NCBI RefSeq assembly: GCF_048403405.1
Contig: NZ_CP183129.1
Source of the DNA: Escherichia coli
GTDB lineage: Bacteria; Pseudomonadota; Gammaproteobacteria; Enterobacterales; Enterobacteriaceae
DNA length: 64,000 nucleotides
Direction: 5' to 3' (one strand)
Shown here: positions 5,595-48,756 of the stretch, in pieces
Numbering within the stretch: the first letter of the stretch is position 1
Layout: the number at the start of each line of letters is the position of its first letter
Translations under genes and position numbers: made by a program
Notes under the pieces: generated by a model
What the model was told of the DNA's origin: nothing
The model's input: only the letters and a program-made list of their open reading frames with translations
Database searches by the model: none

Positions 5595-5687
5595 GGTGAG
5601 GTGGCCGAGAGGCTGAAGGCGCTCCCCTGCTAAGGGAGTATGCGGTCAAAAGCTGCATCCGGGGTTCGAATCCCCGCCTCACCGCCA
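5595..5687 (+). tRNA. serV: tRNA-Ser (anticodon GCU)
   Basis: 93-nt cloverleaf with long variable arm, anticodon loop ctgctaa, ends in CCA; first gene of the cluster. Confidence 0.92.
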
Positions 5688-5690
5688 TTT

Positions 5691-5767
5691 GCATCCGTAG
5701 CTCAGCTGGATAGAGTACTCGGCTACGAACCGAGCGGTCGGAGGTTCGAATCCTCCCGGATGCACCA
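5691..5767 (+). tRNA. argV: tRNA-Arg (anticodon ACG)
   Basis: 77-nt sequence gcatccgtagctcagctggatagagtactcggctacgaaccgagcggtcggaggttcgaatcctcccggatgcacca; anticodon loop ctacgaa; copy name assigned by position. Confidence 0.9.
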
Positions 5768-5901
5768 TATTCTACGTACTTTCAGCGATGAAGGTATGGA
5801 AGAGGTGGCGGTAATAACCGCAGGCACCAGGGAGGATAACGTTGCTTTAGCAACGGCCCGAAGGGCGAGCCGCAAGGCGAGTAATCCTCCCGGATGCACC
5901 A
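5768..5901 (+). repeat. tRNA-Arg 3'-end-bearing paralogous element, copy A
   Basis: 134-nt element after the first tRNA-Arg, ending in a second copy of the tRNA-Arg 3' end (..tcctcccggatgcacca); paralogous to copy B at 6323-6455. Confidence 0.6.
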
Positions 5902-5965
5902 TCTCTTACTTGATACGGCTTTAGTAGCGGTATCAAAAAATCTGCAGTAAAGTAAGTTTCCCGAT

Positions 5966-6042
5966 GCATCCGTAGCTCAGCTGGATAGAGTACTCGGCTA
6001 CGAACCGAGCGGTCGGAGGTTCGAATCCTCCCGGATGCACCA
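5966..6042 (+). tRNA. argY: tRNA-Arg (anticodon ACG)
   Basis: Identical 77-nt tRNA-Arg sequence; copy name assigned by position. Confidence 0.88.
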
Positions 6043-6105
6043 TCTCTTACTTGATATGGCTTTAGTAGCGGTATCAATATCAGCAGTAAAATAAATTTTC
6101 CCGAT

Positions 6106-6182
6106 GCATCCGTAGCTCAGCTGGATAGAGTACTCGGCTACGAACCGAGCGGTCGGAGGTTCGAATCCTCCCGGATGCACCA
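6106..6182 (+). tRNA. argZ: tRNA-Arg (anticodon ACG)
   Basis: Identical 77-nt tRNA-Arg sequence; copy name assigned by position. Confidence 0.88.
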
Positions 6183-6245
6183 TCTCTTACTTGATATGGC
6201 TTTAGTAGCGATATCAATATCAGCAGTAAAATAAGTTTTCCCGAT

Positions 6246-6322
6246 GCATCCGTAGCTCAGCTGGATAGAGTACTCGGCTACGAACCGAGCGGTCGGAGGT
6301 TCGAATCCTCCCGGATGCACCA
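6246..6322 (+). tRNA. argQ: tRNA-Arg (anticodon ACG)
   Basis: Identical 77-nt tRNA-Arg sequence; copy name assigned by position. Confidence 0.88.
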
Positions 6323-9231: not shown

Positions 9232-9304
9232 AAAAAGGCCACTCGTGAGTGGCCAAAATTTCATCTCTGAATTCAGGGATGATGATAACAAATGCGCGTC
9301 TTTC
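9232..9304 (-). ncRNA. micA: MicA (SraD) small regulatory RNA
   Basis: Reverse complement of 9232-9304 reads gaaagacgcgcatttgttatcatcatccctgaattcagagatgaaattttggccactcacgagtggccttttt, which matches my recollection of the E. coli MicA sequence; lies in the gshA-luxS gap and ends in a terminator hairpin. Confidence 0.88.
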
Positions 9305-30593: not shown

Positions 30594-31994
30594 TTAGCGC
30601 GTATTATGAACGGGTGTTTTTTGCCACAATACCAGCTTTTTCCAGCGAGCCATAATTGGCACGGTACAGATAATCCCTATCGCTAATAAGCCGGTGGAGA
30701 TCACTTCTAACTGTTGCGCCGGGCGGAATAGCATCACTACCAACACAAAGGTAATAAAGCCGATGACCAGCCAGGTGAGCCACGGATAAAGCCACATCCG
30801 CAGGCGAATTTCGCTTCCTTCTGCTCGCAGAATTTTGCGCATCCGCAATTGTGAAACGGCGATGACTAAATAAACCAGCAGGGCGATAGCGCCGGAGCTG
30901 TCGATCAGAAATTTAAACACTTTCGCAGGCGCGTAATAATTCACCACCACCGTTAAAAATGCCGCACCGGTCGAGAGTAATACCGCCACATACGGGGTTT
31001 TACTGCGGTTGATTTTACCCATTACCGCGGGAGCATCACCGCGACGGCTTAAGGAGTAGAGCATTCTGGAAGCGGTATACAGCGCCGAGTTCAGGCAACT
31101 GGTTACGGAAAGTAATATCACGCAGTCCATGATTAATTTCGCATGGGGAATATTGAGCAACTCCAGAACCGAGCGATAAGATCCAACGGCTTTCAGCCCC
31201 GGCATATTCCACGGTATTAATGCCACAACGACAAAAATAGAACACAAATAGAAAATAGAGATACGCCAGATAACCGAGTTGGTGGCGCGGACAATATGTT
31301 TTTCCGGCGTGTCGGATTCCGCGGCGGCAATGGTGACAATTTCTGCGCCCATAAACGAGAACATAGTGATCAACATCGCGCTTAATACCGCGCCGAAGCC
31401 GTTGGGCATAAAGCCGCCGCTATCCCACAATCTTGAGATCCCGCTCACTTCGGCATAAGGGTAAAAACCGCTAATTGCGACTGCACCAAGGAAAATAAAG
31501 GCCAGGATAGCGATGACTTTGCACAGCGCCAGCCAGAACTCAAATTCGCCGTAGTTTTTAACGCTTAATAAATTACTGCCAGTTAAGGCGAGGGTAATGA
31601 CGAGGGAAAATAACCAGATGGGAATGCCTGGAACCCACGAGTGCAGGATCATGGCGGCGATGTTGGCTTCCAGCGGGATAACCAGTACCCAAAACCACCA
31701 GTACAACCAGCCGATGGTATAGCCCGCCCAACGACCAATAGCTTTATCTGCATAGGTGGAAAACGAACCCGTGTCGGGCGTGGCAACCGCCATTTCCGCC
31801 AACATCCGCATAATCATAACCACCAGTAATCCGGCGAACAGATAGGCCAGTAATACCGCCGGGCCCGCTTCGGCGATGGCGACGCTGGAACCGACAAACA
31901 GACTTGCGCCGATAACACCGGCAATAGACAACATGGTGACGTGGCGTGACTTCAGCCCGCCGCCTAACTCATGTGGTTGCGATGATTGCCCCAT
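30594..31994 (-). CDS. gabP: GABA permease (APC family)
   Basis: ORF track 30594-32057; ATG at 31994 (MGQSSQPHELGGGLKSRHVTMLSIAGVIGASLF..) gives a 466-aa APC transporter. Confidence 0.94.
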   Translation of the reverse strand: MGQSSQPHELGGGLKSRHVTMLSIAGVIGASLFVGSSVAIAEAGPAVLLAYLFAGLLVVMIMRMLAEMAVATPDTGSFSTYADKAIGRWAGYTIGWLYWWFWVLVIPLEANIAAMILHSWVPGIPIWLFSLVITLALTGSNLLSVKNYGEFEFWLALCKVIAILAFIFLGAVAISGFYPYAEVSGISRLWDSGGFMPNGFGAVLSAMLITMFSFMGAEIVTIAAAESDTPEKHIVRATNSVIWRISIFYLCSIFVVVALIPWNMPGLKAVGSYRSVLELLNIPHAKLIMDCVILLSVTSCLNSALYTASRMLYSLSRRGDAPAVMGKINRSKTPYVAVLLSTGAAFLTVVVNYYAPAKVFKFLIDSSGAIALLVYLVIAVSQLRMRKILRAEGSEIRLRMWLYPWLTWLVIGFITFVLVVMLFRPAQQLEVISTGLLAIGIICTVPIMARWKKLVLWQKTPVHNTR

Positions 31995-32082
31995 CCTGAA
32001 TCCTCTCGAAAGTGTGTCACTTGGGAGAGCGCCCCGACATTTCCCGCGTCGGGTCACGCGTGTAATTGTTATTGATTCTTTT

Positions 32083-32246
32083 TGCCGGAGAGCGGCTCCG
32101 CCTTACCCGACCTGGATTCTCGTAGGCCGGACAAGACGCAAAGCGTCGCCTCCGGCATGGTGCGCCGAATGTCGGATGCGGCGTAAACGCCTTATCCGAC
32201 CTACATTTTCGTGGGCCGGACAAGACGCGCAGCGTCGCCTCCGGCA
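32083..32246. repeat. REP/BIME cluster in the gabT-gabP intergenic region
   Basis: Four REP-like palindromic units in alternating orientation (e.g. gccggacaagacgcaaagcgtcgcctccggcatgg and gtcggatgcggcgtaaacgccttatccgacctac). Confidence 0.8.
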
Positions 32247-32257
32247 TGGGTACGGAT

Positions 32258-33538
32258 CTACTGCTTCGCCTCAGCAAAACACTGGCTGATGATCTCCAGA
32301 CCCTGACGGATCTGAGCGTCTTCAATGGTGAGCGGTACAAGGATGCGCAGCACGTTGTAATACGGGCCGCAGGAGAGAAGAATCAAGCCCTTATCGCGAG
32401 CACGCGCCACGATCTCGGCGGTGAGTTTTGCGTCTGGTTTGCTGTGATCGCCATCTTCAAACAGCTCGATGGCAATCATCGCTCCCAGCCCGCGTACGTC
32501 GCCGATCTCAGTATGTTTTTCGGCTATCGCCAGCAATCCGTCTTTCAGTTTCTGCCCCAGATCGTTGGCTTTTTGCAGCAGATTTTCCTGCTCAAACACC
32601 TTCAACACTTCCAGCGCAGCCACGCAGGCAATCGGGTTACCCGCATAGGTGCCGCCCAGACCGCCTGGAGCGACGGCATCCATCACTTCCGCGCGCCCGG
32701 TGACGCCCGCCAGCGGGAAGCCGCCTGCGATCGATTTCGCAAAGGTGGTAAGATCCGGCGCAACGCCCATCTGCTCCATCGCAAACAGCGTGCCGGTACG
32801 CCCCGCGCCGCTCTGCACTTCATCGGCAATCAGCATGATCCCGTGCTCGTCACACAACGCGCGTAAACGCTGCATAAAGGCTGGCGTCGCGGCGTAGAAA
32901 CCGCCTTCGCCCTGAACCGGCTCAATCACGATGGCGGCGATATCTTCCGGCGCGGCGTCATTTTTAAAGATCCGGTGGATGCTGGCGATAGCGTCATCTT
33001 CACTGATGCCGTGCAGCGGGCAAGGATAAAGCGCGCGATAAACATGGCCTGGCATCAGCCCCATACCCGCAGAGTACGGATTTACCTTGCCGGTCAGCGC
33101 CAACGTGTAGTGCGTACGCCCGTGATATGCACCGCTAAAGGCGATGGTCCCGCTGCGTTTGGTGGCGGCGCGGGCGATTTTCACCGCGTTTTCCACCGCT
33201 TCGGAACCGGTCGTAACCAGCAGCGTTTTCTTGGCAAAATCGCCCGGCACCTTCTGATTCATAATCTCGCACAGCTCCAGATACGGCTCGTAGGCCAGCA
33301 CCTGGAAACAGGTGTGCGACAGTTTTTTCAACTGCGCTTCCACCGCCGCAACCACTTTCGGATGCAGGTGCCCGGTATTGAGCACCGCAATGCCGCCCGC
33401 GAAATCAAGATACTCACGGCCTTCAACGTCCCACACCCGGCAGTTTTCCGCGCGGTCAGCGAAAATGGGGTGAATTTGCCCAACGCCACGGGGAATCGCC
33501 TGACTGCGGCGCTGCATTAACTCTTTATTGCTGCTCAT
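32258..33538 (-). CDS. gabT: 4-aminobutyrate aminotransferase
   Basis: 426-aa class III PLP aminotransferase ORF. Confidence 0.95.
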   Translation of the reverse strand: MSSNKELMQRRSQAIPRGVGQIHPIFADRAENCRVWDVEGREYLDFAGGIAVLNTGHLHPKVVAAVEAQLKKLSHTCFQVLAYEPYLELCEIMNQKVPGDFAKKTLLVTTGSEAVENAVKIARAATKRSGTIAFSGAYHGRTHYTLALTGKVNPYSAGMGLMPGHVYRALYPCPLHGISEDDAIASIHRIFKNDAAPEDIAAIVIEPVQGEGGFYAATPAFMQRLRALCDEHGIMLIADEVQSGAGRTGTLFAMEQMGVAPDLTTFAKSIAGGFPLAGVTGRAEVMDAVAPGGLGGTYAGNPIACVAALEVLKVFEQENLLQKANDLGQKLKDGLLAIAEKHTEIGDVRGLGAMIAIELFEDGDHSKPDAKLTAEIVARARDKGLILLSCGPYYNVLRILVPLTIEDAQIRQGLEIISQCFAEAKQ

Positions 33539-48393: not shown

Positions 48394-48756
48394 TGGTGGA
48401 GCTGGCGGGAGTTGAACCCGCGTCCGAAATTCCTACGTCCTCGGTACTACATGCTTAGTCAGTCTTTACATTCGCTTGCCAGCTGCGGACGGACACGCCA
48501 CTAACAAACTAGCCTGATTAAGTTTTAACGCTTCAACCCCAGGCAGGGCTTCCACGCGATCTCTTTTGGGTTTGACCTCTCTTGATCCCCGTCCTAAGAG
48601 CGGAGGCTAGGGAGAGAGGGCTCTAAGCAGGTTATTAAGCTGCTAAAGCGTAGTTTTCGTCGTTTGCGACTATTTTTTGCGGCTTTTTACGAGGCCAACC
48701 GCCCCTCGGCATGCACCTTGGGTTTCGCAAATCCCGTCGAATCCAGAATCAGCCCC
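48394..48756 (-). ncRNA. ssrA: tmRNA (SsrA, 10Sa RNA)
   Basis: 363 nt; minus-strand sequence begins ggggctgattctggattcgacggg and ends ..ctcccgccagctccacca; contains the tag ORF gcaaacgacgaaaactacgctttagcagcttaa (ANDENYALAA). Confidence 0.97.

Follow-up and report, generated by a model that had tools for sequence, protein, structure and literature searches.

The gap between gabT and gabP in the stretch of Escherichia coli chromosome analysed here (the window, 64,000 nt in full, whose positions are used throughout) is largely taken up by an array of REP units, which accounts for ~164 of the 263 nt and which, with a probability that we would put at roughly two in three, acts as a partial transcription attenuator and as a barrier to 3'-exonucleases, decoupling the expression of gabP from that of gabDT. 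The operon in which the array lies, glaH(csiD)-lhgO-gabD-gabT-gabP, is encoded on the minus strand of the window, and the units of the array are described below in the sense of the mRNA.

Annotation was taken from complete genomes, those of strains TUM14771 and MS 69-1 among them, that are 100% identical to the window over the 901 bases queried (window 31700-32600). In one matching genome glaH(csiD), lhgO, gabD, gabT, gabP and csiR all lie on what is the minus strand of the window, and no gene is annotated between gabT and gabP in a genome that is identical across those 901 bases. The gabT CDS (4-aminobutyrate aminotransferase; 32258-33538, minus), which is supported both by the ORF list and by the annotation of the identical genomes, ends in a TAG stop codon at 32258-32260 on the same strand, and the gabP CDS (GABA permease; 30594-31994, minus, from the annotation of the identical genomes) starts with the ATG at 31992-31994, also minus, the listed ORF 30594-32057 being a mechanical, GTG-extended form of gabP. 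The intercistronic gap of 263 nt runs from 31995 to 32257, and these are exactly the coordinates at which a preliminary description of this DNA had placed a REP/BIME cluster inside the operon, so that the cluster as described there is the entire stop-to-start interval. Two other ORFs, 31876-32289 (plus) and 32017-32340 (minus), were considered as genes and rejected, because they cross REP units and are annotated in no genome. The gabT-gabP array is presumably among the 355 annotated REPs of K-12. In the literature the five genes from csiD to gabP make up one operon, whose promoters are placed solely at csiD and near gabD, and a literature search for papers on the gabT-gabP spacer found nothing useful.

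Followed along the minus strand, the gap opens with a 12-nt spacer, AUCCGUACCCAU (32246-32257), that leads from the gabT stop codon to the first REP stem. REP1 (32211-32245) is a Z-type unit in iREP orientation, recognised from head and tail consensus matches and from its hairpin, and has the sequence GCCGGAGGCGACGC-TGC-GCGTCTTGTCCGGC-CCAC, where the tail CCAC stands in place of the CTAC found in K-12 and most alleles. REP2 (32171-32204; GTAG-GTCGGATAAGGCG-TTTA-CGCCGCATCCGAC) is a Y-type unit in REP orientation with a 5' GTAG, and REP3 (32122-32156; GCCGGAGGCGACGC-TTT-GCGTCTTGTCCGGC-CTAC) is again Z-type, in iREP orientation and with a CTAC tail; both have consensus matches and hairpins, and they correspond to the first and second hairpins of naRNA4 respectively. 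The fourth unit (32084-32115; CCAG-GTCGGGTAAGGCGGAGCCGCTCTCCGGC) is degenerate and Y-derived, as judged from its weak fold and from alignment, and it is followed by a non-REP gabP leader of 89 nt (31995-32083) that was delimited by sequence, fold and allele comparison. Unit order thus alternates (iREP, REP, iREP, REP-like), with linkers of 6 nt between REP1 and REP2 (tail-to-tail), 14 nt between REP2 and REP3 (head-to-head) and 6 nt between REP3 and the fourth unit.

A direct repeat (family D1 of the repeat search) links 32099-32160 to 32188-32249, the two copies being 89% identical and spaced by 89 nt, which shows that a module of two REPs has been duplicated in tandem. Tandem Repeats Finder, when run on the gap, reported nothing, because there are only ~1.7 copies at 89% identity.

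REPs have been defined as palindromes of 20-50 nt preceded by GTAG, and in enterobacteria their stems are interrupted by conserved mismatches. The hallmarks of the family, namely a palindrome that forms a hairpin, stem mismatches, the consensus, an extragenic site and dispersed copies, are all found in REP1-3, with the tetranucleotide present as GTAG in REP2 and CTAC in REP3 and as CCAC in REP1. Consensus counts across the window single out the same place. With up to 2 mismatches allowed, the tail pattern CTTRTCMGGCCYAC occurs three times in the 64 kb, each time inside the gabT-gabP gap, and the head pattern GCCKGAKGCGRCG, allowing up to 1 mismatch, has 5 matches where 0.8 would be expected, 3 of the 5 being inside the gap; REP1-3 match these patterns with 0-1 mismatch, and nowhere else in the 64 kb do head and tail matches cluster. 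A strict full-length REP regex, built on the classical consensus attributed to Stern et al. 1984, finds REP2 and REP3 only, with 2 substitutions each, REP1 having needed the looser head and tail patterns.

The predicted hairpins of REP1, REP2 and REP3 have energies of -20.3, -17.4 and -20.3 kcal/mol and z-scores against shuffled sequences of -3.3, -4.1 and -4.3, and in each an irregular internal zone separates an outer stem of 6-7 bp from an inner stem of 4-5 bp; the entire 263-nt gap folds with a z-score of -4.5. At megablast stringency the gap sequence recurs at a median of 5-6, and at up to 14-15, places per E. coli genome. A further line of evidence comes from E. coli BH100, in which the loop of REP1 carries an IS3-family element, IS1397, together with a target duplication of 3 bp, TGC (569-1999 of the extracted locus); REP-specific insertion of IS1397 is known experimentally, and its presence here therefore means that a biological system has independently recognised this unit as a REP. 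The same insertion cuts gabP off from the operon promoters. With consensus matches, hairpins, alternating orientation and the match to naRNA4 described below all in agreement, the identification as REP/BIME in the preliminary description holds, and we regard it as practically certain that the array is made up of E. coli REP palindromic units.

REP2 and REP3 together match the Rfam family naRNA4 (RF02564) as a module of a Y unit, the 14-nt head-to-head linker and a Z unit (32125-32201, minus), with a score of 70.4 bits (gathering score 59.5) over model positions 1-77, and this is the single naRNA4 match above threshold in the window. Further Rfam matches in the window are tmRNA (ssrA; 48394-48756, minus), the sRNA MicA (9233-9304, minus), a cluster of five tRNA genes (5595-6319, plus) and one more tRNA (40437-40509, plus). 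To our knowledge naRNA4 is the only REP-derived family in Rfam.

A BIME combines a REP and an inverted REP with a linker between them, and BIME-2 elements have been described as tandem Y and Z2 units whose copy number depends on the strain (Ton-Hoang et al.). The gab array shares with the BIME-2 elements of Bachellier and Ton-Hoang the alternation of REP and iREP, that is of Y and Z units, short linkers, a tandem structure with amplification and a copy number that varies between strains, and on its sequence organisation it is of BIME-2 type, with the assignment of its Z units to Z2 only indirect, through the naRNA4 match, because the naRNA4 model derives from REP325, an alternating Z2/Y array. 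It differs from BIME-2 in that its last unit is degenerate, and the 32-nt filler of the common K-12-type gab allele would make that allele an 'atypical' BIME. The closest comparison is with REP325 itself, the source of naRNA4, which lies between yjdM and yjdN in E. coli K-12 and likewise consists of tandem alternating units between two genes of the same operon and orientation; it numbers 12 units in K-12, whereas the gab allele of the window has three canonical units and one degenerate unit with a period of 89 nt. Experiments reported in a 2026 preprint showed REP325 to have two effects: transcription of the downstream gene is attenuated, in part by way of Rho, and the mRNA upstream is stabilised.

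The naRNA4 match could also be taken to mean that the array works at the level of DNA or of the nucleoid, as a target of gyrase or HU or by giving rise to a non-coding RNA of the naRNA4 type with a role in chromosome organisation. REPs have been reported to bind gyrase, Pol I and IHF, and naRNA4 has been proposed to condense DNA together with HU, and the match here is above the gathering score. However, since the naRNA4 model amounts in essence to one Y and one Z REP side by side, every BIME-2 module will match it; neither nucleoid compaction nor REP-REP contacts attributable to REP325/naRNA4 could be measured in the 2026 preprint, and about a quarter of E. coli genomes do without the array at the gab locus. 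It would seem most improbable that such a role is what the array is for.

The preliminary description counted four REP units. Three of these, REP1-3, are canonical and stand; the fourth folds at -11.3 kcal/mol with a z-score of -0.18, no better than shuffled sequence, and has CCAG in place of the GTAG tetranucleotide. Its history can be read from an alignment of the gap of the window with those of K-12, E. albertii and Escherichia sp. E1V33. The E. albertii-type arrangement runs Z, Y, Z, Y, 32-nt filler and degenerate terminal unit, and in the alignment the window allele corresponds to this arrangement minus a clean block of 63 nt, the deletion having fused two heads of similar sequence, that of the second Y unit and that of the terminal unit. 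What remains is a Y-type head (CCAG-GTCGG) fused to the old degenerate terminal unit (GTAAGGCGGAGCCGCTCTCCGGC), the core of which is present in one copy in every REP-type allele examined. Together the 63-nt deletion and the weak fold resolve the "four REPs" into three canonical units and a fusion remnant.

The gap of K-12 (237 nt) is the E. albertii-type arrangement without the first Z-Y module. In K-12-type alleles the non-REP filler AATCTGTACGTGAACAGGAAGAAATCTATGTT, of 32 nt, separates the Y unit from the degenerate terminal unit (6112-6143 of the K-12 extract), and its conservation extends to E. albertii, E. whittamii and E1V33. In our reading the window allele lost its 63 nt via recombination between the two similar unit heads, and the array arose and changes in length by REP/BIME amplification and recombination.

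Whilst the flanking genes are 94.5-98% identical between alleles, the content of the gap varies. The gap is 211 nt with one canonical unit in E. coli strain SCPM-O-B-8794, 236-237 nt with two in K-12, many E. coli and E. whittamii, 263 nt with three in the window allele, 328 nt with four in E. albertii, 416 nt with six in Escherichia sp. E1V33 and 1603 nt with 31 in Escherichia sp. MOD1-EC7003, canonical units having been counted for each allele by their heads and tails and the degenerate terminal unit, present in every one of these alleles, separately. In all REP-type alleles examined the first unit begins 11-12 nt past the gabT stop codon. The gap of MOD1-EC7003 contains 15.7 tandem copies of a 95-nt Z+Y module (1229-2718 of the extracted locus), made up of 16 Z, 15 Y and 1 degenerate unit, and these 32 units, far above the maximum of 12 quoted for K-12, give 15 separate naRNA4 matches at or above the gathering threshold, one of them exactly at threshold. 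The window allele is in a minority, with ~146-157 genomes that are at least 99% identical to it and at most 941 that cover at least 80% of the gap, figures that are to be read as bounds since BLAST joins repeated pieces.

In 1304 of 5426 complete E. coli genomes (~24%) the REP array is replaced by an unrelated segment of 236 nt that holds a GC-rich palindrome, GGGGAGAGGG...CCCTCTCCC, and that has only the last 74 nt of the gap in common with the REP-type alleles. Because these genomes have no REPs in the gap, the array must be regarded as dispensable and not as essential. The GC-rich palindrome, GGGGAGAGGGTTAGGGTGAGGGG...CCCTCACCCCGGCCCTCTCCC in E. coli RM9131 (565-800 of the extracted locus), is itself dispersed, being found at a median of 3 places per genome, and is a repeat that we take to resemble 'Box C'. 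Both classes of gap, REP array and GC-rich palindrome, are also present in Pseudocitrobacter spp., where the gab operon is 86-93% identical to that of E. coli. At two Pseudocitrobacter loci the similarity to the window stops near the csiR end of the cluster (window ~29920), a third being a short contig that is uninformative on where the similarity ends. On sequence comparison this pattern points to one of two histories, a trans-genus polymorphism of long standing or an operon that has been exchanged horizontally.

Such variability is what might be anticipated if the array were a neutral or selfish passenger, a by-product of REP/BIME proliferation driven by TnpAREP/RAYT in a spacer that tolerates it, with any effect on gabP being incidental. 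A range of 1 to 32 units at one locus, the exchange of the array for an unrelated palindromic repeat in the 1304 genomes, an IS within the array of one strain, the derivation of the window allele by a simple 63-nt deletion and the known differences in BIME copy number between strains all sit comfortably with this explanation. Against it, the start of the array is fixed at the same short distance from the gabT stop codon in every REP-type allele, the gap is strongly structured whichever of the two contents it has (-0.43 to -0.45 kcal/mol per nt) and REPs between tandem genes are statistically tied to expression biased towards the upstream gene. A selfish origin would moreover be compatible with a polar effect, so that the passenger explanation concerns selection and not the effect itself, and as an account in place of attenuation we consider it doubtful. 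The same variation can be read in the opposite direction, with the spacer as a selected hypervariable expression dial by which lineages would set the ratio of GabT to GabP, either by having anywhere from 1 to 32 REP units or by a swap to the palindrome, and with the two allele classes as an old polymorphism that is maintained in, or exchanged across, Escherichia and Pseudocitrobacter. We think such a scheme quite improbable.

The reading that we prefer, attenuation of transcription together with protection of the upstream mRNA, depends on how gabP comes to be transcribed. A consensus scan for sigma-70-like promoters found none in the gap on either strand, and a scan for intrinsic terminators, defined as a hairpin with a U tract, found none on the minus (operon) strand of the gap, the REP hairpins being followed by CCAC/CTAC or by purine-rich linkers without a U tract; on these scans an intrinsic terminator and a consensus gabP promoter in the gap were both rejected. 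With no promoter or terminator in the gap and with the operon promoters lying upstream only, expression of gabP must pass through three stable hairpins. The plus strand at 32045-32062, antisense to the operon, carries a terminator-like hairpin, CGCGTCGGGTCACGCG, followed by a T-rich tail, TGTAATTGTTATTGATTCTTTTT, which from its sequence could stop antisense transcription leaving gabP.

Variation is slight at the end of the gabP leader. Its last 74 nt (31995-32068, minus) are common to all alleles, and in 15 loci they are near-invariant, with 48-52 identities among the 52 positions that lie outside the search pattern, an estimate that carries a bias, the loci having been found through an exact 22-nt match within the leader itself; the gabP CDS, at 86-98% identity across genera, is less conserved than these 74 nt. 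They contain a hairpin, CGCG-UGA-CCCGAC...GUCGGG-GCGC, at ~32029-32059 and a Shine-Dalgarno sequence, GAGAGGA, at 32001-32007, and end GAGAGGA-N6-ATG. The unusual conservation of these 74 nt across genera, together with a weak -10-like CACACT picked out by eye in the leader, might be explained if the array ended the gabDT transcript and gabP were expressed mainly from a promoter of its own within the leader. This runs counter to the consensus scan, in which no promoter-like site appeared, and to the literature, which has gabP in the operon with its promoters at csiD and near gabD alone; a start directed by CACACT would give a leader of only ~15 nt, and the bias in the retrieval of the loci weakens the argument from conservation. 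A separate gabP promoter would therefore seem very unlikely.

Intercistronic REPs between malE and malF, as described by Newbury et al. 1987, reportedly protect the upstream cistron from 3' exonucleases, and the BIME attenuators of Espeli et al. 2001 are said to reduce downstream expression; both are cited as classic cases. The gab array likewise places REP hairpins in an intercistronic spacer. That intra-operon REPs may stabilise the upstream mRNA or attenuate downstream expression, as the preliminary description put it, agrees with published work on other REPs, for which both upstream stabilisation and partial, Rho-dependent attenuation have been documented.

Expression data are available for the closely related allele of K-12, which differs from that of the window in having two canonical units and the 32-nt filler. 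In the tables of the 2026 preprint, pooled over conditions, the DESeq2 base means from RNA-seq are 86 for glaH, 277 for lhgD, 648 for gabD, 795 for gabT and 90 for gabP. The values do not fall between gabD and gabT, but across the gap, from gabT to gabP, they step down ~9-fold, which for the K-12 allele speaks for the preliminary description, whose check was a drop in RNA-seq coverage across the BIME. Genome-wide, the median log-transformed ratio of upstream to downstream expression is 0.96 for tandem gene pairs that contain a REP versus -0.09, although according to the same preprint the variance between REP loci is large and there is no general effect on half-life. In the accessible part of the preprint's REP-overlap tables no row was found for coordinates 2794xxx. 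The ratio of C to G is ~0.8-1.2 over the gap and early gabP, with no clear stretch, rich in C and poor in G, such as usually goes with Rho loading, which counts against the attenuation reading, and REPs have been reported to attenuate even without the usual C/G skew.

Under the attenuation reading three stable hairpins would be transcribed from 12 nt past the gabT stop codon onwards. They may pause or attenuate RNA polymerase, in part through Rho, such that a fraction of transcripts reaches gabP, and they may block 3'-to-5' exonucleases, such that the upstream segment containing gabDT would outlast the gabP segment. The net effect would be that the enzymes GabD and GabT are more abundant than the permease GabP from one set of promoters. 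The involvement of Rho, the size of the effect for an allele with three units and the causation of the gabP drop by the REPs are points that we infer, and the 9-fold step in K-12 could instead reflect a different intrinsic stability of the permease segment of the mRNA.

The fixed position of REP1 also raises the question of gabT translation. REPs within 15 nt after a stop codon are reported to cause ribosome stalling and to down-regulate translation (Liang, Rudd and Deutscher 2015), and REP1, which starts 12 nt from the stop codon in the window and 11-12 nt from it in every REP-type allele, resembles in this the nrdAB-type REPs of that study. The REP1 hairpin would then stall the terminating ribosome, the mRNA would be cleaved and the nascent GabT tagged through tmRNA, with the result that GabT is lowered. 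At the gab locus the distance speaks for this, whereas in the K-12 counts no RNA of the operon is more abundant than that of gabT, which gives no sign of destabilisation, and the drop at gabP would be left unexplained. As the principal function of the array we think it unlikely, but stalling at the gabT stop codon is plausible as an effect added to attenuation.

Taken as a whole, neither this kind of element nor its locus, in the best-studied of bacterial genomes, is new, and the probable function has already been described for other REPs. For genome annotation the array carries little weight: no repeats are commoner in E. coli than REP/BIME arrays, whose roles in attenuation within operons and in mRNA stabilisation have been established at other loci. 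The 32-unit array, the palindrome allele and the occurrence of both classes in Pseudocitrobacter are modestly interesting and leave the classification unchanged. For the physiology of the operon, the array is the simplest explanation of how a permease for GABA and 5-aminovalerate can be kept well below the catabolic enzymes when all are expressed from shared promoters. Its natural range, which goes up from a single unit to 32 and includes the replacement of the array by another palindrome, would make the locus a convenient test bed for the relation of REP dose to polarity, and if the spacer were indeed an expression dial, these alleles would amount to a natural allelic series for the control of intra-operon polarity by REP dosage.
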